From an uncultured virus (IMG/VR IMGVR_UViG_3300022198_000015) (Duplodnaviria > Heunggongvirae > Uroviricota > Caudoviricetes): a stretch of 64,000 nt of DNA. A program made the position numbers and the translations under genes. The notes under the pieces were generated by a model, which saw only the letters and a program-made list of their open reading frames with translations, had not been told where the DNA came from and ran no database searches. This document shows, in pieces, positions 9,880-31,218 of this stretch. How positions within the stretch are numbered: position 1 is the stretch's first letter; each line of letters opens with the position of its first letter. The stretch is from IMG/VR virus record IMGVR_UViG_3300022198_000015; one strand, 5' to 3'.

Positions 9880-10275
9880 TTATGACCTAATTAACATAGT
9901 AGCACCCGTCTCACCTACCTTAGGCGTATACGGACAAAACTCAAAATACTTAATAACCTGTAGCCGTGCATCCATTATCTCATCATCAATACCACTGGAA
10001 CCCTTAGTAACCTCCCAACTTAATACATCCGCCTTAACTAACACCTTCCCATCAACATCAGCTAAATCACTAGTCGTCTTAGCCGCCTTACCAGCCTCAT
10101 ATCGATCAACCGCCTCCAATACCTTCAATACAGCCCCACTAGATATCCCCTCTAATTGATTCATACACGTCCGTAATCCATTTATACCATACTCACTAAA
10201 AGCCATCCCCATGGCTTCTAATACCCTGAGATCATCACCCGCTGACCAGTTCCCACTAGTGTCTAAAACAGCCAT
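9880..10275 (-). CDS. Putative head-tail connector protein
   Basis: 131 aa, late motif at 10303-10312, LVKADVLSW motif. Confidence 0.5.
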   Translation of the reverse strand: MAVLDTSGNWSAGDDLRVLEAMGMAFSEYGINGLRTCMNQLEGISSGAVLKVLEAVDRYEAGKAAKTTSDLADVDGKVLVKADVLSWEVTKGSSGIDDEIMDARLQVIKYFEFCPYTPKVGETGATMLIRS

Positions 10276-10317
10276 CAGGTATAATGTAATATAAACCTAA
10301 ATTAGTGTACCATAACC

Positions 10318-10524
10318 ATGTTATTTGACCCACAACAACAAACAACCCTCGCAATAGCCCTAATAATTGCCATTAATTGTCGCTCCCAATTAGGTACTCA
10401 CCAATTACTAAAACAAATCACAGCAATGGAGCCGAAAGTGGCGGCAAAATTTATTACTCGCATCTATGCACTATTGGGCAGTGACGCCAGAGGGTGGTTG
10501 GAGCAGGAATACCAGAAATTTTGA
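10318..10524 (+). CDS. Hypothetical protein
   Basis: 68 aa, TATAAT upstream at about 10280. Confidence 0.5.
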   Translation: MLFDPQQQTTLAIALIIAINCRSQLGTHQLLKQITAMEPKVAAKFITRIYALLGSDARGWLEQEYQKF

Positions 10525-10711
10525 CGCAAATTTAGAGGTTCCTGTCTGTGGCGCAGGCGCCCCCCACTTGACGGGTGGGGGTGCGTACCTTTTCGCAATT
10601 CAATAGGGGCTACCTTTCTATAGATGTACCAGCAAGGATCTACTGTTCGTATCATGATCGCGAACGGCCCGCTGGTCTTCACGAGCACGCTGCTCCTAGC
10701 ACCTGCATCAC

Positions 10712-10740
10712 TTGACATCCCCAGCTCTGTGCTGTAGACT
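10712..10740 (+). promoter_or_regulatory. Host sigma70-type promoter in cassette 1
   Basis: TTGACA-17 nt-TAGACT. Confidence 0.75.
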
Positions 10741-10774
10741 AAAGAAAATTACGGGGCCCACCCCACCACCTCTC

Positions 10775-10966
10775 ATGAACACCACCCTCCTCGGTATGCT
10801 GGCTCTGGCCACTACCCCTTTGCTAACCATAGCCCCTAGTGAGATGCAGACAGGAGCCTGTCTGCGTGGTGACAGACAGCAGTGCATCAGCTACCATCAA
10901 CACCGCTGTGATAAAGGTAACCTCTTTAGCTGCAACCGCCTGGCTTTAATAAAAGAAAATTACTGA
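10775..10966 (+). CDS. Cassette gene: small secreted/membrane Cys-containing protein
   Basis: MNTTLLGMLALATTPLL signal-like N-terminus, four Cys; between repeats 1 and 2. Confidence 0.6.
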   Translation: MNTTLLGMLALATTPLLTIAPSEMQTGACLRGDRQQCISYHQHRCDKGNLFSCNRLALIKENY

Positions 10967-11027
10967 GCAGCAGCGTGAGCGCGAACGGCCCGCGGGTCTT
11001 CACGCTCATCCCGTTAACCTCCACCGG

Positions 11028-11309
11028 ATGCTCCCCATGTCCCTCACCAAGAACTGGCTCCACGACTACAGCACTGCCCTGGATGATGCCTGGATGGCCC
11101 TTGAGGACGCCCTCGCTAAGGTCGAAGCCCTGGCGGATCTGGTCTGGATTGACGATGATACCATCCGCTATCCCGTCCCTGCTGCTGATGTCAATCTGTT
11201 ACAGCGGCGCGTTCGGGCATTGAAGGACAGTGTGGCTGTGGTAGCATCGGCTCAAGAGCCAAGCAGGCTCGCCCCAGAGCTGCCCAAGATCAGCCTGAAA
11301 AAATCGTGA
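11028..11309 (+). CDS. Cassette gene, hypothetical
   Basis: 93 aa; TGA stop is the first 3 nt of repeat 3. Confidence 0.75.
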   Translation: MLPMSLTKNWLHDYSTALDDAWMALEDALAKVEALADLVWIDDDTIRYPVPAADVNLLQRRVRALKDSVAVVASAQEPSRLAPELPKISLKKS

Positions 11310-11483
11310 GCGCGAACGGCCCGCTGGTCTTCACGCTCACCACTCATTAGTAATACTTATCGGTCCCGCCCCATTGATCAGCATTGCTAATGTTAAGTAG
11401 TGTTACAATCTCGTTGACGGGGTGGGCAGATGCCCTATAATAAAGGCACGAGGGGAAGAGAACCCCTCACCACGGAGAACACC

Positions 11484-11633
11484 ATGACCAACGCCATCTG
11501 GACCATCCTCACCGCCGACGTGCGGGACCTGCCCACCGCCTGGTACGGCGCCGGTTACCTGGTTGCCCAGGGCCGCCACGCCACTAACCGCCTGGACGGC
11601 ATGGCCCACCTGCTGCGCCGCTGGTACGCTTGA
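11484..11633 (+). CDS. Cassette gene, hypothetical
   Basis: GGAG RBS, TTGACG-16-TATAAT promoter (11414-11441), hairpin 11641-11662 downstream. Confidence 0.65.
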   Translation: MTNAIWTILTADVRDLPTAWYGAGYLVAQGRHATNRLDGMAHLLRRWYA

Positions 11634-11851
11634 ACCATCAGGGGTCCTGATATCAGGGCCCCTTATCTATTCTCTTATGGGCTTATGCGTCTAGGCGCAT
11701 AACCACTGTATGCTTCTACAATCATATGCGCATATGCGCATAACACTCTATCGTTATATCGGCAAACGTGACAGTGATAAGGGAACGCAGTCTATTTCTA
11801 AAGTGAGCGCGAACGGCCCGCTGGTCGATCACGCTCTCGCGGCGCTTCTAC

Positions 11852-12067
11852 CTAGTCTGTCCCTGAGTCTAGGGTTGCCGCCAGGCAGCGTTCTAGGTGC
11901 TCCTGTAGCCGCTGGGCACGCTTCAGACTATCCCTTCCCATTGCCACCATACTCTCGCCGGCAAGCCGTTCCAAGTGATCAGGGCTCTGCTGCATCAGCC
12001 GGCCACGCCTGATCAGCCAGGCTGCAAACCACACCCATGCCAAGCGCTCCTCAGTCTGCTGCTTCAT
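11852..12067 (-). CDS. Cassette gene, hypothetical
   Basis: 71 aa between repeats 4 and 5, GGAGG upstream on minus strand. Confidence 0.6.
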   Translation of the reverse strand: MKQQTEERLAWVWFAAWLIRRGRLMQQSPDHLERLAGESMVAMGRDSLKRAQRLQEHLERCLAATLDSGTD

Positions 12068-12175
12068 TGCTGGTTAGCATCCTCCAAAGGCTTCCAGATC
12101 CTAGCACAAAAAATCTGATCGCGAACGGCCCGCGGGTCTATCACGGTCACACCTACATTCTTCCCCTACTGAGCC

Positions 12176-12409
12176 ATGACCATCACCGCAAAGAGCACCA
12201 AGCCTGAGATCCTGGCAGCCTACCGCGAGCTGGTTGCCCGCCCTGTCACCACTGCCATGGTCGGCCAGTGGGCCGTCAGCACCGCCCAAACCGTAGTCGA
12301 GGAGTCGGTTCTGCTGGTTAAGGACTGTTACAACCTGGCCAAATGGGCCCGCCGGATGTATGATGGGGTTGTGGCGGAACTGAGCCGCCCGCTGCTAAAA
12401 AAAATCTGA
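12176..12409 (+). CDS. Cassette gene, paralog A
   Basis: 77 aa; paralog of 13145..13378; stop in repeat 6. Confidence 0.85.
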   Translation: MTITAKSTKPEILAAYRELVARPVTTAMVGQWAVSTAQTVVEESVLLVKDCYNLAKWARRMYDGVVAELSRPLLKKI

Positions 12410-12431
12410 TCGCGAACGGCCCGCTGGTCAA

Positions 12432-12671
12432 TCACGATCTAAATCGATCCACCGCAGTCTCCAGCTCGTCCAGGGCCGCCAGCAGCTCCTGGGCCTGATC
12501 CCGCATACCCTCTAGCCACCAGCGATCTGGGGCCCACATCGGCTCCCCAGGCCCGTTGGCCCAGGCCATATTGGCCAGGACCATCACCTCCAGGGCGGCA
12601 GCGTCAAGCTTCTCCTCAGCGGTGTCGCGTTGCTCCAGGTACTCCAGGAGCAGTTCCTTCATGGCAGACAT
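12432..12671 (-). CDS. Cassette gene, hypothetical acidic helical protein
   Basis: 79 aa; stop lies in the right arm of repeat 6. Confidence 0.7.
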   Translation of the reverse strand: MSAMKELLLEYLEQRDTAEEKLDAAALEVMVLANMAWANGPGEPMWAPDRWWLEGMRDQAQELLAALDELETAVDRFRS

Positions 12672-12819
12672 GGCTTGAAATCCCTTGGTACAACTACAGT
12701 TTGGAGCCTACAGGAAAAAAAGTCAAGGGCCTGTTACACAATGAAATGATCGCGAACGGCCCGCGGGTCAATCACGCTCATCCCTGTATACTGATCAAGT
12801 CCCCCATCGGAGTCCTCCC

Positions 12820-13074
12820 ATGACCCACGTCACCACCTACGCGGAGTTGCTGAATGCTCTGGCTGTCGTGCGCGATCGCGCCAATGCTGATGGTCTGCCT
12901 AGCCATATGCGGGCTGTTCGGATGTGGAGGGCCACGGACGCCCTCTGGAATGATGAGTACGCTACCTGGGAGGCCCTCACCAAACTAGGCCACCACAGGG
13001 CTGCTGACTGCGCATGGAAGCGCCGCACGGTCTACAGCGACCTGGCCATACTGCTCCTCAAAGGCGCAGTGTAA
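12820..13074 (+). CDS. Cassette gene, hypothetical
   Basis: 84 aa; GGAG RBS, TATACT at 12787-12792. Confidence 0.7.
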   Translation: MTHVTTYAELLNALAVVRDRANADGLPSHMRAVRMWRATDALWNDEYATWEALTKLGHHRAADCAWKRRTVYSDLAILLLKGAV

Positions 13075-13144
13075 AGAAAAATTTCGTGAGCGCGAACGGC
13101 CCGCTGGTCAATCACGCTCTCGCGTCCTTTACCCCACTCCATCG

Positions 13145-13378
13145 ATGTCCCTCACTGCACGCAGCACCAAAGCTGAAATCTGGCAAGCCTATCAGGGCCT
13201 GGTGGCCCGCCCGGTGACCGCAGCCATGGTTGGTCAATGGATCAGCCAAACCGCTCAGACCGTGGCCGCAGAGAGCGTCCTGCTTGTAAAGGATTGCTAC
13301 AAAGCCGGCCAGGTGGCCCGTAGCTGGTATGATTCGGTAGTGGCGGAACTGAGCCGCCCCATCCTGAGAAAATCCTGA
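13145..13378 (+). CDS. Cassette gene, paralog B
   Basis: 77 aa; paralog of 12176..12409; stop in repeat 9. Confidence 0.85.
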   Translation: MSLTARSTKAEIWQAYQGLVARPVTAAMVGQWISQTAQTVAAESVLLVKDCYKAGQVARSWYDSVVAELSRPILRKS

Positions 13379-13469
13379 GCGTGAACGGCCCGCTGGTCAA
13401 TCACGCTCTCGCGCTATACTGCAATCAGGAGGGGCAGCCCCTCCCACGGTCCTTCACCCCCTGAGACTC

Positions 13470-13682
13470 ATGTCCAGCACTCTCGTTATCGGCACCACCG
13501 CCCGCCCGCTGACTGACGCCTGGCGCCTTGATTGCATCGCCCACTGGGCCCAGTCCACCGAATTCTGGGCACGTTACCTTGACGACTGCACCATGGCCCG
13601 TAACGGCCTCAACCAGTCCTATGCTCGCCTGGGAGAGCACCTGCATTACCTGATGCGAGCTGACTCTCGCCCGGAATATTAA
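13470..13682 (+). CDS. Cassette gene, hypothetical
   Basis: 70 aa; TATACT at 13415-13420. Confidence 0.65.
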   Translation: MSSTLVIGTTARPLTDAWRLDCIAHWAQSTEFWARYLDDCTMARNGLNQSYARLGEHLHYLMRADSRPEY

Positions 13683-13724
13683 AAAATATTTCCTGAGCGT
13701 GAACGGCCCGCTGGTCAATCACGC

Positions 13725-13913
13725 TCATGATTCGTTACATTGCAGCCAGGCATCCTCCACATCCAAGGCGTGGGCTAGGATCTCACCGATGGGCCCGTCC
13801 ATGTGGGCCTCAAACTCTTCGTCGCTCAGCTCTTTGCGGGCCACCTCCAGCTCGTTGTGGAGGTACTCGCACCACTCCAGCAGATTCTGGAGCTTGTCAA
13901 TCGCAGTGGCCAT
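13725..13913 (-). CDS. Cassette gene, acidic hypothetical
   Basis: 62 aa; GGAG RBS; stop is the last 3 nt of repeat 10; TATACT on minus at 13937-13942. Confidence 0.75.
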   Translation of the reverse strand: MATAIDKLQNLLEWCEYLHNELEVARKELSDEEFEAHMDGPIGEILAHALDVEDAWLQCNES

Positions 13914-13982
13914 GAGGGTTCTCCCTGTTTGATTTCAGTATACTCGGAATTTGAGCGTGAACGGCCCGCTGGTCGATCACGG

Positions 13983-14450
13983 TCACGCCGTATATGGGTC
14001 AGCAGGCCAGGCTAGGACTAGTTTCTGGCGTGGGAACTGGCCCGTGGTGACCGTCACAGCAGCCTGCAGCACAATCTCAGACCATAGGATCCATCGGATC
14101 TGGAAGGGCGCCGTGGAAGCTGCCGACCGATAGGCTCCCAGCTCGCCTTCAAAGTCGTAAGCGTGGCCGTAGGTCAGATGATCCCAGTCATGCACAGCCC
14201 GGAACATAGCATTCTCCACCGGCAGCCAGAACGGGTGACGGTTGTGCGCTGTGCTAATCAGCAGCTTGCCGGTGCGCTCCCAGTAACGCTGCAGTCGCTC
14301 AGGCTTGACAGGGTTGGGCGTATACTGTACCAACGGCCGGATCCGTTCATAGCGCAGATACAGCCACTGCCGAAAGGTGTACAGCTGCTCTGGTGATGGC
14401 CGGCAGCCCTTTGAGGCTAGGTACAGTTTGGCGAGTCGTGAGGCTTGCAT
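13983..14450 (-). CDS. Cassette gene with FRAVHD..H motif (possible metal-binding/hydrolase domain)
   Basis: 155 aa from ATG 14450 (MQASRL...); ENAMFRAVHDWDH...FEGE; stop is the last 3 nt of repeat 11. Confidence 0.75.
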   Translation of the reverse strand: MQASRLAKLYLASKGCRPSPEQLYTFRQWLYLRYERIRPLVQYTPNPVKPERLQRYWERTGKLLISTAHNRHPFWLPVENAMFRAVHDWDHLTYGHAYDFEGELGAYRSAASTAPFQIRWILWSEIVLQAAVTVTTGQFPRQKLVLAWPADPYTA

Positions 14451-14606
14451 GGTTCCCCCGTTGCATCTGGTGTCAGTGTAGCACGTTTGAGCGTGAACGG
14501 CCGCTGGCCGCTCACGGTCACGCGCTCTCGGTCGCCCTATCTCTCTATCGTTGTTGCACGCCAGAAAAAAAGTTCCTATACTGCAGGGGTACACGGGAGT
14601 CACCCC

Positions 14607-14756
14607 ATGCGCCACACCCGCCCGCTCACCAGCAAGCAACTGCAGGCTTTCTATAAAGCCCTGCTTGACGCCGATCGCACGGCGGCCTATACTGATGCCC
14701 ATCTGGCGTTCCTTGAGATGCGCCGTGATGCTTTCCTCGCTTCCCTCAAAAAGTGA
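14607..14756 (+). CDS. Cassette gene, hypothetical
   Basis: GGGAG RBS; TTGCAC-17-TATACT promoter 14554-14582. Confidence 0.65.
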   Translation: MRHTRPLTSKQLQAFYKALLDADRTAAYTDAHLAFLEMRRDAFLASLKK

Positions 14757-15088
14757 TGACCCTCGCTATTGCCCCCAACGCCTATGTCATCCGCATCTAT
14801 TGCGGTATGTCAGTTCAAGGCGAATCTAGTGCCAGCATCTATAACAACAGCTACGACATTATCATGGAGCTGGCGGATTACTGGTTTGGCCAGGGTTGCA
14901 CCGTTTACAATGCTACTGGCATTTGGATGAACGGCGAGGAAGAGATGATGATCATTGAATATGTAGCCGACAAGGAGGTAGAAGCTGCTTGCGAGGCTGC
15001 TAACCAGTTAGCCATTGAATATAAGAACCTGAATATGCAGGATGCTGTTCTGGTTACTGTAGATCAAACTTACAAAAAAATTCTTTAA
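14753..15088 (+). CDS. Hypothetical protein (DUF3574-like pattern)
   Basis: GCTVYNATGIW...EE...YK...QDAVLV; overlaps upstream stop. Confidence 0.65.
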   Translation: MMTLAIAPNAYVIRIYCGMSVQGESSASIYNNSYDIIMELADYWFGQGCTVYNATGIWMNGEEEMMIIEYVADKEVEAACEAANQLAIEYKNLNMQDAVLVTVDQTYKKIL

Positions 15089-15286
15089 AAATTTTTTAAA
15101 GAAAAAATAAACCGCTGGGGAGAAAAAAATCTCCCCTTTTTTTTGAGCGTGAACGTCGCAAGCGTCGTTCACGATCGATCCCGCTGTCAAGCCCGCCCCT
15201 CTTTGTCATATTTCGTAATATTAAGCTGGCCCTGGCGCCGGGGCCGGCCAGGCTGTATACTTTAGGGGTCCCTCAAGGGTTAACCC

Positions 15287-15883
15287 ATGAGCAAGTTTAC
15301 AATCCTCGGAGTGCTGAATTTAGCAACCCAGGCTGACAGAATCGAGGGCCTTGATTGGTATGACCGCGCTAAGCGTGTCGCCGAATCTATTGCTAATCGG
15401 GTGGGCTTGCCCGGTGAGCTTCCCGCTATCGGGTGGCAGACAATCGCCGGGGTGCTCGCTGCCCTTAGCCCTAACAATCGGTGGGAGCGCAATTGTGCCG
15501 ATGCTGAGCTAGTTGTTAAGCTGTTTAAAGCTGGCGGTGCTGATGCTGCCCTAGGTGCAAAGGTGTGTACCTATAAATCAAACCTGCGTAAAGCGGTTGC
15601 GATTCTAGAGGGTGCGCCCATTGTAGCTACCCTTAACGGGCCAAAGGTTATAGAGTTCTACAATTGCATCACCGGCAGCGTTGCTGATGTATGCATAGAT
15701 GGGCATGCCTATGCCATATGGTGCGGCCAGCGACTCACAATAAAAGAAATTCCTCCCATTGGAAAGAAGTTGCGGGCACAAATTAAAGCGGACTATATTG
15801 CAGCCGCTAGGTGTGTTGATCTTCGGCCCTGTGAGGTGCAGGCTATTACCTGGGTTACATGGCGCCGTTTGCATAACGTCTAA
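15287..15883 (+). CDS. Phage protein with HhH-glycosylase-like motifs (DUF7178-like)
   Basis: WYD...LAALSPNNRWERN...GPKVIEFY...VCIDGHA...VQAITW. Confidence 0.7.
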   Translation: MSKFTILGVLNLATQADRIEGLDWYDRAKRVAESIANRVGLPGELPAIGWQTIAGVLAALSPNNRWERNCADAELVVKLFKAGGADAALGAKVCTYKSNLRKAVAILEGAPIVATLNGPKVIEFYNCITGSVADVCIDGHAYAIWCGQRLTIKEIPPIGKKLRAQIKADYIAAARCVDLRPCEVQAITWVTWRRLHNV

Positions 15884-15914
15884 AAATTAATTTTCACCCC
15901 ATCCCATCGCTTTT

Positions 15915-16130
15915 TTGATCATGCTTGCTACTGTCCGTTTCTATCTTGACGCTGAGGTTGATGCTGAGCTGCTTGACGAGCTTGACCTTGAATATAATTA
16001 TGAAGAGGACTATTGCGTTCTGACCTTAGAGGTTGACGAGACCCTGTTAGAGTCACTCAATGGTGAGGAACTGGTAGAGTTTATCGGTATCGACGGCGAG
16101 AATCTGGTTTATATCGAGGTGGTGGAATGA
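15915..16130 (+). CDS. Highly acidic small protein
   Basis: About one third D/E residues. Confidence 0.7.
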   Translation: MIMLATVRFYLDAEVDAELLDELDLEYNYEEDYCVLTLEVDETLLESLNGEELVEFIGIDGENLVYIEVVE

Positions 16131-16318
16131 GTAAAGAGGTCATTCGCCCTATCTATAATGTACTGTTACCACCTGCAGGTGTACCCTCACCAGTTTTTTA
16201 CTTTATATTGTTAGGTATTTTCCCCTTTTTATGGTTACTGAAAGCCACAAATGTTCTAGAGCCTGCCTACTACGAACACCCTGACGGCTCCATTAAAAAA
16301 TATCCCCCGAAATATTAA
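16127..16318 (+). CDS. Small membrane protein
   Basis: One hydrophobic segment, ATGA overlap with upstream gene. Confidence 0.55.
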   Translation: MSKEVIRPIYNVLLPPAGVPSPVFYFILLGIFPFLWLLKATNVLEPAYYEHPDGSIKKYPPKY

Positions 16319-16324
16319 TTTACA

Positions 16325-16349
16325 GGGCCCAATTCGGGCCTTTTTTTTT
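16325..16349 (+). terminator. Intrinsic terminator
   Basis: GGCCC-AATTC-GGGCC followed by T9. Confidence 0.8.
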
Positions 16350-17288
16350 AGTTAAAACAGCGAATCGATCGTGAACGGTGCGCAGCACCATTCACGGTCA
16401 CGCGAGGGGCGCGACCGGGGAGTTGCAATTATTCACATGGGCGCGAAGCGCCGCCGGCAAGGCAGCATAAACCAAAAACTATTGGTATACTATTATATAC
16501 AGACAGCGGCCACTTCGGCTACTGGCACCTTGACAACAGAATAAGGCTATGGTATAGGGAGGGGCCCGGTTTCCAGCATTAGTATTTTCCCCAAGGTTTT
16601 CACCTCTCTCTCCTCATTCTACCAACACGACACCAGTGTATTGGTCTTTAGAATTCGTAAAAACGCTGTGAGGCACTAGGTTTCTAGTAGCCGTGGTCAA
16701 ATAATATCTGTGGGATTATAATCGCCACCTAAGGGAAACCCATGCACACCAACCTATGCAATGCCTTAAAATACCAATTGCGAAACAACTCGTATATATG
16801 TAGCCGACGAAACAATACTAGCAAGCAGGCGGCAACCCATTGCATAATCCCCCGCCAGACAACACCCCTCTACAAGCCTCTAGAACAGGCCTAAAGGGCA
16901 CCACCTATAGGGAGACACCACAGACGATGTTAAAGGTCCTTCTAGAGCCTTCCAGGGGCCTCTAAATAAATAAAAAAATATCCCCCGGTGCCGGTTGGCC
17001 ACCAAGAAAAAAAATTACCCCGGATGGCGTATCTGGTGGGCCTCAAAGCATAGCTCAGTACATTCTTGTTTTAACCTAGTTATATATTCTGGATCATTAC
17101 ACTCGGTAGTTGCCTTAGTTATCTGTTGCTCTAGATTAAATAACTTTTCTAAGATTAAGACTAATTTGGGATTGTTCATTGTACCCTGTAACTAAGTAAA
17201 AAAAAATTCTTACCTAGTAAGTGGACCCTCTAGGCTGCCCATACAAGGGCTAAACTGTCACACACTATTGATTTTGTATCAGATGATA

Positions 17289-17700
17289 CAAGGTCCAAGT
17301 TTTATGGGTCAATGTCCCAACTCGGTCTGCGAAATGTCCACACCAAAACCCTTGCAAATACTACATGGTCCGCAAGGTCCAAGTTTTGAATTTACATGAG
17401 CTGTCGAAAAGTGCCGCCTAGTCATTTTTGTATCCGCATGAACCTTTTGATTTGTTGCCGTGATGCATCTGTAAAATCTGAGAGGGGGGTACCTCAAAAC
17501 TTGGACATCGCGGACCATCCAGTCATACCAAGGGGTTTGGCGCGGACCTTCGGCAGACATTTGGGGGACATTGACCTAAAAATGCGGACCGGGCCTTGTG
17601 CCAGTTGTTTTTGCTATTTCCAGTCTCAGATGGACCACCACCACGTTCGCGGACCTTCGCGGACCATCCAGTCATACCAAGGAGTCTCATGTTGAGACTC
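17289..17700. repeat. About 100 bp imperfect inverted repeat plus 26 bp direct repeat; candidate replication origin
   Basis: Arms 17289-17389 and 17494-17598; TCGCGGACCATCCAGTCATACCAAGG at 17508 and 17657; hairpin GAGTCTCA/TGAGACTC 17682-17700. Confidence 0.8.
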
Positions 17701-17752
17701 AAATGAGACATGGACCTTCTGGTATACTGAAGATGCCCCACGACATGACCCC

Positions 17753-17989
17753 ATGCAAATCGACACTGAAAGCGTGCTCAAAGCTGCCGACAAACTTATT
17801 GCCGAGCACCCACGAGAGAAGGAGATTCTTAAAAACAACATTTTTGCTGTTCGTAGTCTCCGAGATAAAGGGTTAACTTATGGCGAAATCCGAGAGCTGA
17901 CTAATTTGTCATTGACCACCATTAAGCGTTATCTGGGTAAAGCAGAAAAAAATCTGGTTGCTCATTACCAGAAAATCCTGGAGGACTGA
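17753..17989 (+). CDS. Helix-turn-helix DNA-binding protein
   Basis: LRDKGLTYGEIRELTNLSLTTIKRYL; TGGTATACT extended -10 upstream. Confidence 0.8.
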   Translation: MQIDTESVLKAADKLIAEHPREKEILKNNIFAVRSLRDKGLTYGEIRELTNLSLTTIKRYLGKAEKNLVAHYQKILED

Positions 17990-18051
17990 CACCCAAGGGG
18001 CCACCTCGGCCCCCTCCTTTGGTATACTGAGAATGCCCTATCCACGAATCT

Positions 18052-18258
18052 ATGGATCGCCGCGAATACGTCCCCACCTTCACCTCCTTTGCCCACCCGC
18101 TGTTTGCCCGTCGCCCGCAGGCCGGTGGTGCCCCTGTTGAGCGTTATGTAGTGGGTTTCCGCGTCAAGGCCCGTGAGGTCGTCTTCATCACCACCGAGAT
18201 GGAAGAGATCTCGGCTGATGGTGTGGTTCTGTATCGCCTGCCCTCCGTCGAATACTGA
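18052..18258 (+). CDS. Hypothetical protein
   Basis: 68 aa; TGGTATACT promoter at about 18020. Confidence 0.6.
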   Translation: MDRREYVPTFTSFAHPLFARRPQAGGAPVERYVVGFRVKAREVVFITTEMEEISADGVVLYRLPSVEY

Positions 18259-18336
18259 AGTATTGCTTGTATTGGTAAAACACCCAATACATGCCAATAT
18301 TAAGTATTTCTACCTACATCAAAGATTCATTCAGTC

Positions 18337-20955
18337 ATGCTTATGGCCTCAATCAACCTACAAGAAGCCGTCTCCTTCTTTAGGTTAATCGGTAGGGATC
18401 CCAAGAACATCATCTACCAAGCTTTCAAAGATAAGCACTTCGATTACGCATCTGTCGGGCAGGATATTCCCAAGCCGCGCACAATGCGTAACTCGGATGA
18501 GCTGAAGGCTGCTGCATCTGAGAACTGCGGGATCTATTGGACTCTTGCGAAGTTTGACCAGCTTCCTATTGGGCGCATCAGCCGTTCCAAGGACAGCATC
18601 CGTCAGCACGGCGGGAAGATGGATTGTTTTGTCATTGAATGGGATGACATCTCCAAGGAAGAACAACTGGAACGTATCGACCAGTCGGGCTTCCCTACCC
18701 CCAGTATCCGCATCGATTCTGGTGGTAAATCCATTCACCAGTACTGGTTCATTGATCAGGACATTGATCCTGATGAATGGGAGAAGATCCAGAGCCGATT
18801 TGTGTCGGTTTTTCAGGCTGATCTCAGCATCAAATCCCTTGATCAGGTGATGCGTCTGCCTGGTGCAGAACACGTCTCTGGTGGTACTTCCACGAAAGTT
18901 CTAGCGGCCGAAAAAGATATCGACAGCGACTTCAATGTCATTGTCAAACGGTATACGCTAGATCAGTTCCTGGAAGCGTTGGGTGACTACGAAGAAAAAA
19001 ATAAGCCCGCCACCTCCCCGGCTACATTGCAGCAACTTGCTGTACAGCCCCAGGAGATTCCTGTAGGAGATAAGACTGGTGCTAGTCGCTGGTTTGATCT
19101 GTTGGCTGCTCAGGAGCAAGAAGCCTGTGTTGTAGAGATGCTGAAGAAGATCTCTGATGTGCATGGGATTGCATCTGAAGGTGGTTATGTGCCTAACCAG
19201 CTCCAGGAAAAGTTCTTGTTTGGTGTGTTTAGCCACTTCAAGAACAAGAGCGATGCCGATATGGTGGCTCTGATTGAAAAGGCCTATACATGGGCCTCTG
19301 ATAGCCACAAACTAGAGGATGGGACCTTTGGTGCATGGCGCATTAGCCTGTTGCGTGCTGCGCTACAGAAGCGTCAGAATATTGGCTCTACAATCCGGTT
19401 TGCACGTAGTTGTGGTTGGGATCCTAAACCCTGGAAAGAAGTAGCCGGTAAGGATGATCAGTCCCTGGCTGCTATTGTCATTGACGATCTATTTGATCTG
19501 AATGACGATAATTCCCGTGATGTGCTTACCATCATGGGGCGCACCTATTGGCGTCGCAATGGTAATTTCCATTACGATGAGTTGCCTAAGCATGAGTTGA
19601 CTAATATGGTTAGCCAATTCATCTATGACAACTATCCCAAGAAGTTTGGTGCTGTTGACCAGATTATTAAATCGCTGCAACAGTTTACTGCACGTCCTGC
19701 GCGTGTAGCACCTGATGGTTATATCAATTTCACCAACGGTGTGCTGCATGTGAAGGGTGGTAAGCGCATTCTATACCCTCATTTCTCACCTGAGACACTA
19801 GATATGGTGTTTCTGGATGCGCCTGCATGTAAGTATGATCCTAATGCGGATCGTACCTATGCCCGCCAGGTGCTAGAGGGCCTGGAGAATGAAGAAGCTC
19901 GTGAGATCTGGCTAAGAGTTGTTGCCCAGGGTATTAACAACGCAGAAGCCCAACAGCATCTGATGCCTGTTGCTTTGATCAACTTTGGTAAGGGTGGTAA
20001 TGGTAAGGATGTTTGCATCAATCTGGTGCAGTATATCTTTGGTAAGTCACTTGTTAGTCGTATCGACCTGGCAGATCTAGCCAAAGCAAGTGATCCTAAC
20101 CAGAACAATGGTACGCTGGCGTTACTGCCACTACAGCACTCTAGGTTTAACCTGCCATCTGAAACACCTACCACGAAGAAGCTGAATCATCTCAGTGACT
20201 TCAAGGCATGTGTGACTAACGATGAGATGAAAGCGCGGGGTCACAATGATGACTTTGTGTACTTCCATCCCAGAGCAGTACACATGCTTAGTGTCAATGA
20301 AGGTCTGTTGATTGACCAGACTGATGCTATGGCTAGACGCTTCAGGGCTGTGCATTGGCCCTATGTCTATAAGTCCGAATCTGATTATGATAAGCATAAT
20401 CAATTCCATCGCAAAGCGGTACTGTGGTTTAAACCTAATGCCCGTGATGTTGAGGGCGTACAGCGTGTCAAGGATGAAATCTGCCCTGGTTTCATCTTAG
20501 AGATCCTGGATGCATATGATCGTCTATGTGGTTTCATGGAGTCGGACTATGGCAAAGGTGTACCCAGAAAGTACTCTGATTCGGTATTTAGAAACCTGAG
20601 GGGTGAAACCGATCACGTCCTCAGGTTCCTAGAAGAGTCTGGTTACTATAAATCTGAAGAAGAATGGTCTTCGACTACGATTTCAGTAACTGGCTTGTAC
20701 GAAGAATACCTGAGGTGGGGTGTACCCGAAGGCTATACACAGTATGCGGTGCCGGAGGCTGCACTGTTGTCTAATGAGCTGCCTAAGATCGTCAGAAATT
20801 CTGGGGCTATTGAATCTGCCAATAAACTGGAGCGTAGGGTGCTAGCTGCAATGAATGGTGTGGAATCTGTTAGAATGAATCAGGTCACTGCTAATAAGCA
20901 TGGCATTGCTAGAACTAAATCGTATAAGTATTTAGCACGTAGGATTGATGGCTAG
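18337..20955 (+). CDS. Primase-helicase (RepB-like AEP primase + D5/SF3 helicase)
   Basis: IEWDD, DSGGKSIHQYW, MRLPG primase motifs; GKGGNGK Walker A; AMARR arginine finger. Confidence 0.9.
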   Translation: MLMASINLQEAVSFFRLIGRDPKNIIYQAFKDKHFDYASVGQDIPKPRTMRNSDELKAAASENCGIYWTLAKFDQLPIGRISRSKDSIRQHGGKMDCFVIEWDDISKEEQLERIDQSGFPTPSIRIDSGGKSIHQYWFIDQDIDPDEWEKIQSRFVSVFQADLSIKSLDQVMRLPGAEHVSGGTSTKVLAAEKDIDSDFNVIVKRYTLDQFLEALGDYEEKNKPATSPATLQQLAVQPQEIPVGDKTGASRWFDLLAAQEQEACVVEMLKKISDVHGIASEGGYVPNQLQEKFLFGVFSHFKNKSDADMVALIEKAYTWASDSHKLEDGTFGAWRISLLRAALQKRQNIGSTIRFARSCGWDPKPWKEVAGKDDQSLAAIVIDDLFDLNDDNSRDVLTIMGRTYWRRNGNFHYDELPKHELTNMVSQFIYDNYPKKFGAVDQIIKSLQQFTARPARVAPDGYINFTNGVLHVKGGKRILYPHFSPETLDMVFLDAPACKYDPNADRTYARQVLEGLENEEAREIWLRVVAQGINNAEAQQHLMPVALINFGKGGNGKDVCINLVQYIFGKSLVSRIDLADLAKASDPNQNNGTLALLPLQHSRFNLPSETPTTKKLNHLSDFKACVTNDEMKARGHNDDFVYFHPRAVHMLSVNEGLLIDQTDAMARRFRAVHWPYVYKSESDYDKHNQFHRKAVLWFKPNARDVEGVQRVKDEICPGFILEILDAYDRLCGFMESDYGKGVPRKYSDSVFRNLRGETDHVLRFLEESGYYKSEEEWSSTTISVTGLYEEYLRWGVPEGYTQYAVPEAALLSNELPKIVRNSGAIESANKLERRVLAAMNGVESVRMNQVTANKHGIARTKSYKYLARRIDG

Positions 20956-21437: not shown

Positions 21438-21509
21438 TGCGGGATAGTGTAGTGGTTGCACAGGAGTCTCATACGCTCCAGGTGGTGGGTTCGATTCCCA
21501 CTCCCGCTT
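21438..21509 (+). tRNA. tRNA with CAT anticodon (Met, or Ile2)
   Basis: GCGGGA/TCCCGC acceptor, GGAGT-CTCATAC-GCTCC anticodon arm, GGTTCGATTCC T-arm. Confidence 0.88.
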
Positions 21510-21546
21510 TTTGATAAACTGAGGATACGTCTAATCCATTAAATTA

Positions 21547-21855
21547 GTGAATGCCAACAAGGCCAAGGCTATTCAAACATGCATCGAAAATTTCGATTTT
21601 CAAAAGATGCATACTATGATGGAAGCTGTTGATTGGGAATGGTGGTCAGCTGATTTTAAAGTGCCTACAGTACAAGAGCTTAGGAATGCTGCTATTTCGT
21701 TATTAAGTCGATCCTGGGATATGGAAACAACCATCTACACTGGGGGTTTCTACGTGCGATATCATCCTGAAGAAACCATAGGTAAAGAAACCTATGAGCC
21801 TGCTCTAGAGTTACTTTTTATTGCGGTGGAAGCCCGTTCAGATGAAGCCTGGTAA
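21547..21855 (+). CDS. Hypothetical phage protein
   Basis: NFDFQKMHTMMEAVDWEW...VPTVQELR...TGGF. Confidence 0.75.
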   Translation: MNANKAKAIQTCIENFDFQKMHTMMEAVDWEWWSADFKVPTVQELRNAAISLLSRSWDMETTIYTGGFYVRYHPEETIGKETYEPALELLFIAVEARSDEAW

Positions 21856-21895
21856 GGCTGTCGTATGCTGAAGGGGTCCTCAGCAGAAGTTCGCT

Positions 21896-22390
21896 ATGAA
21901 CATTTTCTATGTTGACAAGGATCCCGTCCTAGCTGCCCGTGCCCTGCCGGATACCCACATCGTCAAGATGCCTACTGAGACGGTGCAGATGTTGGTGTCT
22001 GCCTGCATCAGGAACCACCTCTGCCATGGGGTGCTGACGGTAGCCGGTAGTCTCCATAGGGGCGGCTATGCCAACCATCCATGCACCCGCTGGGCCGGTG
22101 ACAACAGGGCTAATTTCCAGTGGCTCTGGCGCCATGGCGTGGCCCTCTGTCATGAATACGAGAAGCGGTATGGCCGCGAGCATGCTGCTGCCGCTCAGCT
22201 GCGCCAACTGATGGGTTGTATGGACTGGATGCCCAGTGGCCTGTTTACCACGCCTCCCCTGGCGATGCCTGATGAATGCAAGACGGCTGATGCGGTCGAG
22301 GCCTATCGGAACTGCATCCGTTTCAAGATTGTTAAGAAACCTGAACGGTTTGTCTGGAACAAGGGCCAGGCTGCTCCTGAGTGGCTATGA
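21896..22390 (+). CDS. Pyrimidine-dimer DNA glycosylase/endonuclease V-like family protein
   Basis: MNIFYVDKDP...HIVKMPTETVQML...NHPCTRW...EYEKRYGREH...AMPDE. Confidence 0.8.
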   Translation: MNIFYVDKDPVLAARALPDTHIVKMPTETVQMLVSACIRNHLCHGVLTVAGSLHRGGYANHPCTRWAGDNRANFQWLWRHGVALCHEYEKRYGREHAAAAQLRQLMGCMDWMPSGLFTTPPLAMPDECKTADAVEAYRNCIRFKIVKKPERFVWNKGQAAPEWL

Positions 22391-22417
22391 TATGGGGGTA
22401 CCAAAGGGAGAAACCCC

Positions 22418-22648
22418 ATGGCCCGCACCTACTGGAACGTATTTGCTCATGAGTATGGCACGACCGAATTCGTGAACAGCTACGACAGCAAGCGCGAAGC
22501 TCAAGCTGCTATCAAGCACATGCTGCAGGAGTTCAAGGACCACCCCCAGTGGTATGATTATAGCGAGGCCTGGTTCAGCATTGAGCATGGCCCCACTGCG
22601 GAAGAAACCTCAGTCCTGTCCGATCAACTTGACGCCGCTGGCCTTTGA
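22418..22648 (+). CDS. Hypothetical protein
   Basis: 76 aa with GGAG RBS. Confidence 0.65.
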   Translation: MARTYWNVFAHEYGTTEFVNSYDSKREAQAAIKHMLQEFKDHPQWYDYSEAWFSIEHGPTAEETSVLSDQLDAAGL

Positions 22649-22847
22649 AAATCATGACATTTCAACCACTCCCCACCATCGGTGGTATCCGCTTCGCTAC
22701 CAAAGAGCACATCGCCATCCATCTGCGCGAGATCTGTGCTAAGGTAGTCCGAGAAGACCCAGCCAACCGCGAGGTCATCACCCAGGCTTTTGAAGCCTAC
22801 ATTCAATGCTTTTGAAGCCTACATTCAATCTATCTAAGGAGTTCAAC

Positions 22848-23111
22848 ATGGCTTTTCACGAAGATGTTCGTCAGGTGCTGGAAGCTGCAGGCTCCAGCCT
22901 GGTGTCGGTGTATTTCATCAAGAAGGATGGCACTGAGCGCCAATTGACGGGTAACCTGATGGATCACAACGACATCAAGGGTACGGGTAATCCGACCCAG
23001 GATCCCAACATCGTTCGCATCCGCGATATCAAGCTGGGCCAGTGGCGATCCTTTGATTGTCGCCGTGTTATCAAAATTAAATCCAAAGGAGAAGTCCACA
23101 ACTTCGCTTGA
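22848..23111 (+). CDS. WYL-like/SH3-fold protein
   Basis: VSVYFIKKDGTER...QWRSF; AGGAG RBS. Confidence 0.7.
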   Translation: MAFHEDVRQVLEAAGSSLVSVYFIKKDGTERQLTGNLMDHNDIKGTGNPTQDPNIVRIRDIKLGQWRSFDCRRVIKIKSKGEVHNFA

Positions 23112-23161
23112 TAAACTGAGATAGTCGAAGGGAGGGCGACTTTAAAAATCCTTCCCCATAA

Positions 23162-23243: not shown

Positions 23244-23285
23244 TCAATAGGTAAACTAAAACACAAAAACACACAGCCTCTACCT

Positions 23286-23726: not shown

Positions 23727-23754
23727 TATAATGAGTATGCTGCAAACCCCTTAT

Positions 23755-24461: not shown

Positions 24462-24957
24462 CCAACACCCAATCACCCCGCCGCCCGAGCTGGTGCAGCC
24501 CGAGCCGCAGGGGCCAACCGATGAGAGGACTTTGATGCCCGACTTTCGTGCGCTGTGCGCTGAGCTTCACGCCGCTTTTAACACATACGCTGTTGATGAG
24601 GCGCACCACGACCTGCTTGTACGCGCCAAGGCCGCCCTGGCCCAGCCTGAGCCGCCGAACTTGAAGGAGCAGGCGCTGGAACACCTAGAGCAGATTCATG
24701 CCAATGCTTATTCAATTGGCATGGGATTCGATCCTTCCATCATCCGCCGCGCCCTGGAGCAGCTGCCCGAGCCGCATGGGCTGACGGATGATGAAATCGA
24801 GGAGCGTTTTCAGCGCTGGTGGTTCAACGAAGGCAGCGGAATGCGACCGCTCAATGGCGAGGATCAGGAGGAACACGCTCACCGCGTAAGCCAGATTGCA
24901 TGGAGCAATGGTGCCTGTGTCGCCCGCTGGAGGGTGGCCATGACTGAACCATCTTGA
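24454..24957 (+). CDS. Mosaic PITPPPEL-module protein
   Basis: MTDQHPITPPPELV...DFRALCAEL...PPNLKEQAL...RRALEQL. Confidence 0.7.
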   Translation: MTDQHPITPPPELVQPEPQGPTDERTLMPDFRALCAELHAAFNTYAVDEAHHDLLVRAKAALAQPEPPNLKEQALEHLEQIHANAYSIGMGFDPSIIRRALEQLPEPHGLTDDEIEERFQRWWFNEGSGMRPLNGEDQEEHAHRVSQIAWSNGACVARWRVAMTEPS

Positions 24958-25005
24958 CACTGAGCGGTTCCCCTGCTAGAATGACCAACGTACACCAAAC
25001 AACCA

Positions 25006-25634
25006 TGACTGAACTTCCAAACCTGGCTGGCGTTGCCACCAAAGATCTGGTCGAACAGATCGGCACTGGCAGCTTCAAAGCCAGTTACATCAACTGGTCT
25101 CGGACGATGAACCTGCTGCGGGTCAATGCCCCCAGCTGGATGGCTGAATGCGTCTATAGCCCAGAAGGGACCATCCTGCACCGTGCCCCAGTGGGTGCCT
25201 ATCTGCTGATCCGGTTCCGTCATCTGGACGGTACGGTCACCCCAGAGGTGCCCCAGGCCGTCATGGATCACCGCAACAATGCGATCCCCTATGACAAGGT
25301 GACTGCTCGGGACATCACCGACACCCAGCGCCGTGGTACCTGCATGGCTGCTGCGTTTATCTTTGGCCTGGCTTATGAGCTGTGGGCGAAGATGCCACTG
25401 GAGTCTGGTTACACCCAGCCAAGCAATGGCCCTGAACTGACTGCAGAAACCAGTGCCCGTAGCAGTGGTGCTACCGAAGCCAAGTTCGTTGCAGCCGCAA
25501 AGAAACGTGGTCTGAGTGAGCTTGCTATTGATCTGGTCAAAGGTAAACTAAATGGGGATTGGGCTGGGGGTCTGAAGACTCTTGACGCTAAGAGTGACGA
25601 TGAAATTGCGGCGTTGAATGCTGCTGCCGGCTGA
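25006..25634 (+). CDS. Single-strand annealing protein (Sak/DUF1071, Rad52-like)
   Basis: ASYINWS...AVMDHRNNAI...DITDTQRRGTCMAAA..FGLAYELW. Confidence 0.75.
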
Positions 25635-28234: not shown

Positions 28235-28288
28235 TTTTATAAAATGTAAGTAAACCAAAGCCTCTTTATGGGGCTTTTTTATTCCCCT

Positions 28289-28720
28289 ATGGATCTACAA
28301 CAGTCTGAGCTTGCGCCTGGTACCATCGGCCCCCTGCTCGATGAGCTACCCCTGCTTACTCATGCCCACGTCCGTCCCTATGTAGTGGCTATAGCCCTCC
28401 ATAGAGGCGCTGTACGCCGCCCTGAGCTGCTTGCTGCCCTAGTACCCCATTGCCCCATAGCAGACCTCAAGGAAGGCGCCTGGAGCGCCCTAGCTGGTGA
28501 TTACCTGGACTCTACTAGAGTAGAGCTTATCGTAGATGAAGTCCTAGGAGAATTTGTAGCTAATAAATTACTGCGTTATAATGAAGAAAAAGATATGTGG
28601 GTTGCTAATGAGAACCAAGGCCTAGGTTTTTGGATCACAAAGGTAGCCGAACTTAATGCTCAAGCTCCTTTGCACCTTCTTAAAGCCGCTGGAGTTCATT
28701 CCTTTATCTCACCTTTCTGA
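28289..28720 (+). CDS. Hypothetical protein
   Basis: ORF in replication operon. Confidence 0.65.
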   Translation: MDLQQSELAPGTIGPLLDELPLLTHAHVRPYVVAIALHRGAVRRPELLAALVPHCPIADLKEGAWSALAGDYLDSTRVELIVDEVLGEFVANKLLRYNEEKDMWVANENQGLGFWITKVAELNAQAPLHLLKAAGVHSFISPF

Positions 28721-29782: not shown

Positions 29783-30145
29783 TTGAGCTACTGTTTAGAG
29801 ATACACATGCCTTTATTTTCTAAAGCAAGACCTCGTATGGGCCCCAGAGGAGCATTTATGCCCCCTGCTTATAAAGAAAAACAAAGAAAAATGCGTATCC
29901 TAATCAGAGAACAATGGGACCACCCTCCCCTAGAAGGACCTATGCGCTTAGAAATCGAGTGCTGGGGCGAAGGTAGGGTAGATGCTGATAATATGATCGG
30001 AGCCTTGATGGATGCTGCTAATGGCATTCTTTGGACCGATGATAGGGTTAGCATCATCCCAGAAATCAGTGTCGTTTGGCACAAAGCAAAAAAAGATCAG
30101 TCCAAATGGCTGATTAAAATTACGGAGCTTACTAATGACATTTGA
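29783..30145 (+). CDS. rusA: RusA-like Holliday junction resolvase
   Basis: SKARPR...DADNMIGALMDAANGILWTDD. Confidence 0.85.
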   Translation: MSYCLEIHMPLFSKARPRMGPRGAFMPPAYKEKQRKMRILIREQWDHPPLEGPMRLEIECWGEGRVDADNMIGALMDAANGILWTDDRVSIIPEISVVWHKAKKDQSKWLIKITELTNDI

Positions 30146-30335
30146 ATCTGAACTTTTTGACCTCTCACTTAATCAGCAGTTTGAGGTCGCTAAGTACACT
30201 CAAATTATTGACAAATGCGAGGATCTTAATCAGGTAAAACAAATAGCCAAATTACTTCTAGAGGCCTACCAACGGCAACGCTCCGCCACTAAATGGGTAA
30301 TTAATGAACATCTAAAATCAGGTCTAGGCAGTTGA
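30135..30335 (+). CDS. nblA: NblA-like phycobilisome degradation protein
   Basis: 66 aa helix-loop-helix, LSLNQQF motif. Confidence 0.7.
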   Translation: MTFESELFDLSLNQQFEVAKYTQIIDKCEDLNQVKQIAKLLLEAYQRQRSATKWVINEHLKSGLGS

Positions 30336-30363
30336 TATATTGAGTCATACCAAGAGCACAACA

Positions 30364-31218
30364 ATGCGCAAATCATACAGTATCGCCTGGAGCCAACCAG
30401 ACAATGCCTATAGGAAAGATCCAGGCATTGCGCAATCCCATCTCAAGTCGATACTGATTAGCCCTGCGCATTATAAAGCAGCGCAACAGCGTCGCTTTGC
30501 TGTGACTCCTAATATGACTCTGGGCAGTGCTCTACATTGCGCTGTTTTAGAAGGTCAGGATGTATTTGAGGCAAATTATGTCATGCGTCCTGATGGCCTT
30601 AACCTGAACACCAAAGCGGGTAAAGAATGGGCAGCCGAACAAAAAAGCAAGGGCCTGACTGTGCTCAACGGTGAGCAAGTTCTACAGTTAAATGGCATGG
30701 TAAAAGCCTTGCAACAACTGGAGTGGTTTGCCCCAGAGCGTCAAGCAGAGCTAAAGCGTTTCTCTGAAATTTCCATTTACTGGGAATGGTGCGAGATGGA
30801 TTGTAAGGCTCGACTTGATCGAGTTATTGAGTTGCCGGATAAGGTACTTGTGTTGGATCTGAAGACTACTGATTCAGTTAATCCTCGTAAGTTTCTGGAT
30901 AAAGTAATTTATCTGAATTACCTGTTTCAAGCAGCTTATTACTCCAAAGCAGCCTCCATAGCTTTTGGAAAACCTGCAGAGTTTATCTTTGTAGGGGTTG
31001 AACGAGATGCCCCTAATTGCATTGACTATTTCACTCCAACACCTGATATGGCTGCCGAAGGGGAACGGCAGTGTGAGTTTGCCTTGAGGACCTTGAAACA
31101 GTGTATACTGACGGATGAATGGCCGGGACCTCCCCCGACCATGAACCAGATGAATCTGCCGGAGTGGTACCGTTCACCAGTACCTGCAGCAGAACAGCCT
31201 GAACCACCTCTTTTCTGA
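30364..31218 (+). CDS. RecE/exonuclease VIII-like PD-(D/E)xK nuclease
   Basis: SPAHY...GSALH...CKARLD...LDLKTT...YLFQAAYY. Confidence 0.88.
   Translation: MRKSYSIAWSQPDNAYRKDPGIAQSHLKSILISPAHYKAAQQRRFAVTPNMTLGSALHCAVLEGQDVFEANYVMRPDGLNLNTKAGKEWAAEQKSKGLTVLNGEQVLQLNGMVKALQQLEWFAPERQAELKRFSEISIYWEWCEMDCKARLDRVIELPDKVLVLDLKTTDSVNPRKFLDKVIYLNYLFQAAYYSKAASIAFGKPAEFIFVGVERDAPNCIDYFTPTPDMAAEGERQCEFALRTLKQCILTDEWPGPPPTMNQMNLPEWYRSPVPAAEQPEPPLF

Follow-up and report, generated by a model that had tools for sequence, protein, structure and literature searches.

The DNA analyzed here, referred to as the window, consists of bases 1-64000 of the 66,521-base record of an uncultured virus (IMG/VR IMGVR_UViG_3300022198_000015) and carries 14 same-strand copies of a 33-base imperfect palindrome between positions 10655 and 16400. 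This repeat is the boundary between interchangeable single-gene cassettes, as is evident from its anatomy, from genes bounded by its arms, from the reordering of cassettes among related phages and from cassettes found inverted. Beyond this we favor, tentatively, a reading in which the repeat would be a hairpin-marked cassette boundary with arms conserved as sequence and an interior that folds as DNA, and in which exchange would proceed by the phage's own Sak/RecE-type annealing. The array is a new variant among repeat-mediated phage cassette arrays.

In each copy, an interior separates the left arm, TGANCGYGANC, from a right arm that ends in TCACGNTCA. The arms are 11 bases each, the spacer between them varies from 11 to 23 nucleotides (nt), and the element spans 33-45 base pairs (bp) over the family. 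Pattern matches numbered zero in 100 dinucleotide shuffles of the genome. Relatives were gathered by pattern and protein scans, keeping one locus per contig; the first set held 170 contexts, and the enlarged set 239 copies from 49 loci, one being the window and the other 48 coming from other phages. Single chance-like pattern matches, duplicate loci of one contig and near-identical strains (L002, L064 and L114; L081 in cassette counts) were left out, as were, from cassette counts, cassettes longer than 520-640 bp or without a scored open reading frame (ORF). A blastn search of positions 10400-18300 against 50,697 phage records gave no match, though the pattern search later found two copies in isolate S-CRES2, where they flank a gene annotated as an S-adenosylmethionine (SAM) hydrolase. 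A locus search based on the primase found nothing, and an Rfam scan of 10000-18400 returned two weak chance matches only. Among 301 genomes of the family of a Cyanobium genome, which need not include the true host, two contained one lone, coreless match each, and the element thus did not occur as a dispersed host repeat in the genomes searched. No earlier description of the element was found in the literature covered, which was incomplete and did not extend to the S-CRES and S-CBS2 genome papers.

The interior is built on a 4-bp core. Core halves read GGCC/GGTC in 155 of the 239 copies, GGTC/GGCC in 26 (from five arrays), GGCC/GGCC in two and GGTC/GGTC in none, and GGCC-CNNN-GGTC is found in 149 of 169 copies; in these the loop is free to vary, and 0-8 nt bulge on the 3' side. 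Exchanging the two halves in concert shifts a G·T wobble by one pair and leaves it on the top strand; both forms occur within the L330 array. Note that a column-pair covariation test is blind to this swap, because each pair changes on one side only. In an ungapped alignment of 50 sequences, with rows selected to have the same length and an interior resembling the core, every cell (100%) of the 4-bp inner helix is paired. A preliminary description of the window had stated that the inner segment varies in sequence yet stays paired, and the core counts and the selected rows agree with it.

Loops and end copies provide further evidence for folding. All eight triplets of the GNA or TNC type are among the 21 loop triplets found (Fisher 5e-5; conservative permutation P 0.033). 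At the far end of arrays, copies carry unrelated interiors by which the stem is lengthened. In eight of these end copies, two of them homologous, the stem is predicted to be capped on the top strand by C(GNA)G or C(GNNA)G. According to excerpts of PMC13037366, GCGNAGC and GCGNNAGC mini-hairpins are much more stable as DNA than as RNA. Given the concerted wobble swap, the free loop and bulge, the DNA mini-hairpin loops and the perfect stems of end copies, it is likely that selection acts on the interior for folding as a DNA hairpin. Hairpin stability rises along nine of 12 arrays and does not in the other three. A strict one-strand placement of mini-hairpin loops was considered and rejected, as the raw count is nine on the top strand and eight on the bottom, most of the latter being loops of 2-bp cores.

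The sequences quoted in the preliminary description are in place: CGGCC-GCT-GGCCG at 14488, CGTGAACG-T-CGC-AA-GCG-T-CGTTCACG at 15144, GGTGC-GCA-GCACC at 16366 and GATCG/CGATC at 12407, with 12747 mismatched in the outer stem. The triloop at 14488 is strain-specific; four of eight runs show an extra C at 14500 that restores the usual 12-nt core length. The AA loop at 15144 becomes a 4-nt loop in the fold model. A free-standing GGCGC-GAA-GCGCC mini-hairpin lies at 16441-16453, 40 nt past the last repeat.

Unlike the interior, the outer arms behave as sequence-read half-sites with free positions and not as a covarying stem. They are kept letter by letter at TGA-CG-GA-C, with free positions between. 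Covariation was measured by pair counting with shuffles. Arm position 4 and its partner are Watson-Crick paired in 50 of 169 copies, compared to 61.3 (global) or 62.3 (within-array) after shuffling, with P(<=) of 0.018 and 0.001, respectively; corresponding values in the enlarged set are 69 of 183 core copies and 77-80 shuffled. Watson-Crick pairing at position 10 is seen in 17 of 183 core copies and in 32 of 56 non-core copies. The score for the whole structure in the 50-row alignment was 0.073, compared to 0.081 for shuffles, 441 of 500 of which scored as high. The outer-stem covariation proposed from the window therefore did not hold, and in the larger alignment, the very check proposed as decisive against selection for a folded hairpin, no significant two-sided covariation was detected. 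Selection for folding is retained for the inner segment and withdrawn for the arms. GAAC, previously considered invariant, is so only within the window; it is found in 91 of the 239 copies, and GAGC in 123.

Unpaired direct repeats of the arm half-site are present at L049:30163-30210 (L049 being S-CRES3) and at L133:6269-6345. Because of the half-sites in S-CRES3 and the lack of arm covariation, the arms may still be recognized as duplex, so that the earlier preference for folded single-stranded DNA or RNA over double-stranded recognition stands for the interior, where a DNA fold is indicated, and is not secured for the arms. Along eight arrays, left arms switch in blocks from CGC (in one array, GAG) to CGT. 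Between L091:5282 and L119:900 the flanks are the same on both sides and the free arm letters are exchanged (C..C versus G..G), as if the arms had been swapped round a fixed core. Host CRP/FNR, LexA, NtcA and HIP1 motifs were compared with the arms by eye and did not fit.

Cassettes have a median length of 293.5 bp and hold a single gene, with 83 called genes in the forward and 55 in the reverse direction. Of the 138 called ORFs, 77 have the arm's TGA as stop codon (six of these lie in the window), and such ends are found in both directions (32 forward and 29 reverse of 110). The 138 cassette proteins form 52 families, 26 of which have two or more members; the Pfam cut-off was passed by two of the 52 family representatives (DUF3574 and Kyano_Gp96). 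Families recur beside many different neighbors in different phages, and six of the 26 multi-member families include cassettes of either orientation, whose leaders and ends are similar. In the clearest case L063_5 and L102_2 are one cassette inverted end to end (inverted alignment 1-215 of 223 bases), with identical arms at both ends that include the rare TGACC variant.

A promoter-like motif is present within 10-12 nt of an arm at the 5' end of the gene in 43 of 110 cassettes, compared to the 3' end in six of 110. These motifs lie outside the repeat, and their distance from the arm is variable. Such placement would suit arms that serve as double-stranded operators for a phage regulator tuning outward-facing early promoters, shuffling then being a by-product of repetition and the hairpin secondary. 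The lack of arm covariation and the unpaired half-sites of S-CRES3 point the same way, the block order of left-arm changes resembles graded affinity, and sister lineages have a fixed-center 16-bp palindrome at similar spacing. We nevertheless consider operators rather unlikely to be the explanation, since both the arm-to-promoter distance and the spacer vary and since the wobble swap, the mini-hairpin loops and the perfectly paired end copies are left unexplained.

The palindrome of the sister phages (TRGGTA...TACYYA, with a fixed 4-nt center) recurs at ~310-bp spacing in the same region (S-CRES3, L049:31399-32993; also L239, L248, L250 and L251). It is often just upstream of a TTG hexamer, and three S-CRES3 genes end inside it; the window has a single copy, at 18301-18316, before the primase gene. 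TAGTAC-N4-GTACTA palindromes, which we take to resemble the cyanobacterial LexA box, are repeated near array ends (L049:30225 and 33028-33141; L248, L296 and L300).

Whether DNA or RNA is the folded form was judged from strand comparisons. No locus of the 170-context set has standard (GGCC/GGTC) cores in both polarities, whatever the gene direction, and the standard core is kept in eight of eight divergent sites, where the genes on both sides point away. At sites between two reverse genes, the folding energy is −12.2 kcal/mol for the transcribed strand and −19.6 for the opposite one; for pairs of forward genes the values are −14.5 and −13.9. At strand-informative arm positions (G·T on one strand, A·C on the other) the mRNA-sense strand bears the mismatch 50 times and the wobble 11 times, an excess to which strand composition bias could contribute. 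The mismatch trend has a rho of −0.64 across 26 related arrays and a within-array P of 0.018 that comes from just three mixed arrays. Because divergent sites keep the core and mismatches fall on the mRNA-sense strand, these comparisons favor DNA over RNA as the probable folded form.

An RNA element placed at each stop codon (a stem-loop that stabilizes 3' ends, an attenuator or a site of RNase III processing, comparable to the T4-type elements discussed below or to T7 early mRNA) would account for a stem that begins at the stop codon in more than half of the cassettes. Transcribed strands still fold, at about −12 to −14.5 kcal/mol, and transcripts likely cross the site for 13 of 14 promoterless short-leader genes, which follow a gene in the same direction; this fits read-through and is not significant versus baseline. 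This explanation is improbable, however, as the transcribed strand is the weaker folder in reverse sites and bears the mismatches, core polarity tracks the genome and not the gene, untranscribed divergent sites are intact and no Rfam match was obtained. T-tracts follow the right arm in just five of the 239 copies, which speaks against an intrinsic terminator; A-tracts precede the left arm in 38 of 239.

Exchange of the homology type is suggested by two observations. First, near-identical strains differ in patches inside one repeat, and at 12116 the patch extends 9 nt into the flank. Second, no fixed crossover is apparent, with nine left-only and 11 right-only informative site pairs and no sharp split, a comparison of low power. 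In the mechanism we propose, each site would fold when the region becomes single-stranded during resection or replication. A phage protein would then bind the arm stem, and strand exchange would thereby be concentrated at gene boundaries. The phage's own Sak/RecE-type annealing would swap cassettes between repeats and, on occasion, invert them between arms that face each other, and arm mismatches would weaken the RNA copy enough for read-through.

Candidate proteins for these steps are encoded on the plus strand of the window. A Sak/Rad52-like annealing protein (24954..25634; a weak match, E 1.6e-4) has homologues annotated as Rad52 recombinase in S-CRES2/3 and is the candidate shuffling enzyme. 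A conserved 150-amino acid (aa) protein at 28268..28720, directly after ssb, is a candidate arm-binding factor; it has a predicted winged-helix-like fold, with such matches at E 0.04 or weaker and no sequence match in the PDB. RusA-like resolvase and RecE/exonuclease VIII-like genes (29783..31218) are conserved in the five near-complete relatives compared. The Sak/Rad52-like, ssb, RusA and RecE-like genes are present in all five of these, with or without an array. An ORF at 28914-29315 is common to the three long-array genomes, and its nearest named family is DUF1599. Two other leads were dropped: DUF7178 is widespread (1083 homologues) and absent from G001, G002 and S-CRES2, and a fold search with 42008-42394 gave small SH3/KOW-like matches with Z <=6.0.

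Inversion that is exact to the arms, with arms that travel with the cassette, could alternatively be the work of a dedicated structure-specific recombinase, of phage or host and of an unrecognized type, that cuts folded single-stranded DNA at the arm/core junction in the manner of IntI on attC. Arm-gene-arm units would then move either way and cores would stay. Uniform core polarity, arm mismatches above chance, stop codons inside the site and a spacer whose range of 11-23 nt is tolerable for a hairpin would all fit. Searches for such an enzyme were negative: tyrosine recombinases (PF00589) were found in none of five records (two complete), Y1 HUH proteins (PF01797) in none of three genomes, serine resolvases (PF00239) in none of four records and GIY-YIG nucleases (PF01541) in none of five records, and none of the four was found among the 115 window ORFs. 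No window gene of plausible function is exclusive to array-bearing genomes. Since variable positions also have no fixed split point (at the low power stated above) and conversion patches reach into flanks, we think a dedicated recombinase unlikely. The wider form of this idea, a phage-borne integron analogue in which an unrecognized protein reads new-type folded single-stranded sites and excises, inserts and flips cassettes drawn from a pool shared across the cyanosiphovirus family, is likewise unlikely; if true, the phage would have a re-orderable library of early anti-host genes.

Several points weigh against exchange by annealing at a DNA-folded boundary. The weakest step is inversion, which is poorly explained because arms of 11 bases are short for an annealase; Red-beta-type annealases use homologies of 40-50 bp and tolerate divergence, according to excerpts of PMC2896510. 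A hairpin would be superfluous if annealing were all that is involved. The assignment to Sak is a weak one (E 1.6e-4; the PDB gave no sequence match), and the same Sak/SSB/RusA/RecE-type genes are found in S-CBS2 and S-CRES3, which lack the array. Excision, circles and inversion were not directly observed, and contig joints at repeats have sides of <30 nt, which makes them uninformative. As for folding, the wobble swap may have arisen independently just two or three times, so that per-copy and per-array Fisher values both overstate it. The core pattern is missing in 56 of the 239 copies, L041 (two copies) breaks a core pair and L379 (five copies) extends G·T pairs instead. Loops of the GNA type are found on both strands, so folding is not strictly one-stranded, and classical two-sided covariation is absent from the 50-row alignment. 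An early hairpin-versus-shuffle test of non-standard interiors, which ignored pairing extending from the arms, was not significant (sum 53 versus 47.9, maximum 60).

Read depth gave one unusual result. For run X15, whose kind was guessed as DNA, several cassettes between 11804 and 13952 have a depth of 7,000-46,000 within positions 10200-18200, and the flanks and the cassettes at 11307-11804, 12407-12747 and 13952-14488 have a depth of <300; the other seven runs vary mostly within about ten-fold. This contrast could result from RNA, from amplified cassette circles or from other phages that share cassettes. A loose end at 12436 in the same run continues as the flank of the copy at 12116, and could be a circle junction or a strain variant. 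No two-fold depth step of the kind expected from a long terminal repeat over the array was seen in runs X1 and X2. At 16340 a T-run is one T longer in both of these runs.

Among known systems the array works most like the promoter early stem-loops (PeSLs) of T4 and is not one. The likeness, as excerpts of PMC2839356 and PMC4122927 describe PeSLs, is that an intergenic motif combining a stem-loop with a sigma-70-type promoter is repeated between small orphan genes of a hypervariable phage region with gene gain and loss, that the motif starts at the upstream stop codon, and that shuffling occurs without a dedicated recombinase. In those same excerpts, however, the PeSL is conserved over ~100 bp including the promoter, and its stem-loop terminates transcription. 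The repeat described here is a 33-45-bp two-armed palindrome with promoters outside it, genes in both directions, inverted cassettes and DNA mini-hairpin loops, and it is because the promoter lies outside the conserved motif that we do not classify it as a PeSL. The orphan region of cyanomyophage S-PM2 was judged not to be PeSL-driven in the part of PMC4503421 that treats it.

The analogies with attC sites, HUH targets and N4 promoters that had been proposed from the window failed on the features examined. The array shares with attC sites in clusters lacking integron-integrases (CALINs), as outlined in excerpts of PMC8618304, same-polarity imperfect hairpins that bound single genes, a pool of orphan cassettes, an interior kept for structure over sequence and no integrase nearby. 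It differs in that its repeats are much shorter, no IntI was found, and many cassettes have promoter motifs and lie in either direction; a missing IntI alone does not exclude CALINs, which are integrase-free by definition.

Core boxes of attC read RYYYAAC ... GTTRRRY and lie 40-130 nt apart. This consensus had no match on either strand of 10401-16600, and AAC is not conserved in relatives. Targets of HUH enzymes (REP/RAYT, IS200/IS605) have a conserved tetranucleotide at the hairpin foot; here the commonest flanking 4-mers are found in just 26 and 17 of the 239 copies. For hairpin repeats of the Ssn type, the partner GIY-YIG nuclease was found in none of the five records searched. Segments between the short inverted repeats of shufflons likewise occur in both orientations, but no Rci- or Hin-type recombinase was found here, and whole genes are also gained, lost and reordered between phages.

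The C(GNA)G and C(GNNA)G loops of end copies and of some cores resemble the mini-hairpins of N4 promoters, the G4 origin and RSF1010 ssiA as treated in excerpts of PMC13037366. The loops of the array, however, are not invariant, are found on both strands and lie between genes rather than at a single origin or promoter. The conserved GNA triloop on a 5-bp stem typical of N4 is not seen, with 21 loop triplets of which a subset is of the GNA type on both strands, and an N4-type virion T7-like RNA polymerase had no match among the 115 ORFs, which include two sigma factors instead. Extended start-associated sequences (ESAS) of cluster K mycobacteriophages are comparable in being imperfect inverted repeats whose spacer varies, in preceding small phage genes and in having no known function, as given in sections of PMC3203893. 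By those sections they have arms of 17 bp and a spacer of 4-13 bp and are tied to translation starts, and neither a paired core nor cassette inversion is reported there.

Phage mosaicism is usually ascribed to homologous or illegitimate recombination, and defined modules at gene boundaries are known mainly from T4-like phages. This family is a sharper case, with a symmetric 33-45-bp site, genes trimmed to its stop codon and a pool of at least 52 mostly orphan proteins, and it adds cassettes in both orientations and signs of selection on DNA structure. The array marks candidate genes for early anti-defense or host takeover, and it coincides with assembly breaks in many such phages. Because isolate S-CRES2 has two sites around the gene annotated as SAM hydrolase, the mechanism is testable in culture.

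Within the window, all copies are on the plus strand. Copy 1 (10655..10687, arm-core-arm), which lies outside the range given in the preliminary description, is followed by a 63-aa ORF (10775..10966, +; no family match), copy 2 (10976..11008) and a 90-aa ORF (11037..11309, +) that belongs to a family found in six arrays and whose stop is the first TGA of copy 3 (11307..11339). Non-coding DNA follows the 49-aa ORF at 11484..11633 (+). Between copy 4 (11804..11837) and copy 5 (12116..12149; differing by a conversion-like patch, including <=9 nt of flank, in strains >=99% identical) is a 71-aa ORF (11852..12067, −), whose extended −10 motif is separated by 12 nt from the left arm of the latter copy. 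The 77-aa ORF at 12176..12409 (+) belongs to the commonest family (17 members, 14 forward and three inverted) and stops in copy 6 (12407..12440), as does, in the right arm, the 79-aa ORF of the opposite strand (12432..12671, −). Copy 7 (12747..12780) is a divergent site with genes on both sides pointing away, and TATACT lies 7 nt after the arm for the 84-aa ORF that follows (12820..13074, +).

Downstream of copy 8 (13087..13120), a 77-aa paralogue of 12176-12409 (13145..13378, +; no promoter motif found) stops in copy 9 (13376..13409), the first copy with CGTGA in the left arm. A 70-aa ORF (13470..13682, +) precedes copy 10 (13694..13727), in whose right arm a 62-aa ORF stops (13725..13913, −; family in both orientations). 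Similarly, a 155-aa ORF (13983..14450, −; family in eight arrays) stops in the right arm of copy 11 (13952..13985). Copy 12 (14488..14520) has a fully Watson-Crick inner stem and is followed by two ORFs of 49 and 111 aa (14607..15088, +), the second of which has weak similarity (30% over 71 aa; pairwise E 7e-7) to the family that is annotated in S-CRES2 as SAM hydrolase. Copy 13 (15144..15177) is of the end type, with an unrelated paired interior. It precedes a DUF7178 gene (15287..15883, +) whose S-CRES3 homologue is annotated as N-glycosylase/DNA lyase. Copy 14 (16366..16400), also of the end type, has a GC-GCA-GC mini-hairpin apex.

Some copies elsewhere have unusual forms. At L111:6-80 the site is duplicated in tandem with few bases between copies. 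Three phages (L133:13699, L272:6037 and L308:1512) share a special copy, situated toward the structural genes, whose arms enclose a short hairpin and a long C-rich tract, and further hairpins with TGTAACAT-type arms adjoin the array at L133:13720-13850 and 14760-14810.

The virus is an S-CBS2-like cyanosiphovirus. Its major capsid protein is 81-86% identical to those of Synechococcus phages S-CBS2 and S-CRES1-3, and the window encodes tape measure, terminase, portal, psbA, hli, two sigma factors, DNA polymerase A and a primase-helicase. The array is situated between leftward structural genes, which end at 10275, and a repeat-rich region preceding the primase gene. The latter region (17301..17700, no strand assigned), mostly non-coding and before the helix-turn-helix and primase-helicase genes, is likely a replication origin. 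Iteron-like repeats of unrelated sequence occupy this same location in each phage (also L048:31471-31664, L049:29691-29782, L239:4412-4499 and L258:6705-6839). Many relatives' contigs start only 1-4 kb upstream of the neighboring structural gene, as would be expected if assemblies break at the array. Between array and structural genes lies a conserved run of C with A/T tracts after it (window 10520-10600; L048:32890-32965; L049:33139-33300; L133:14955-15025), which may mark an end of the genome or a site of packaging. In the S-CBS2 record, the syntenic region (L050:2300-6000) holds low-GC genes that look unrelated and has no array; this may reflect another module or a fault in the assembly. 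Three tRNA genes (Met, Leu-TAA and Ile-TAT) are found at 21438-23827 of the window, with an HNH gene between the last two.

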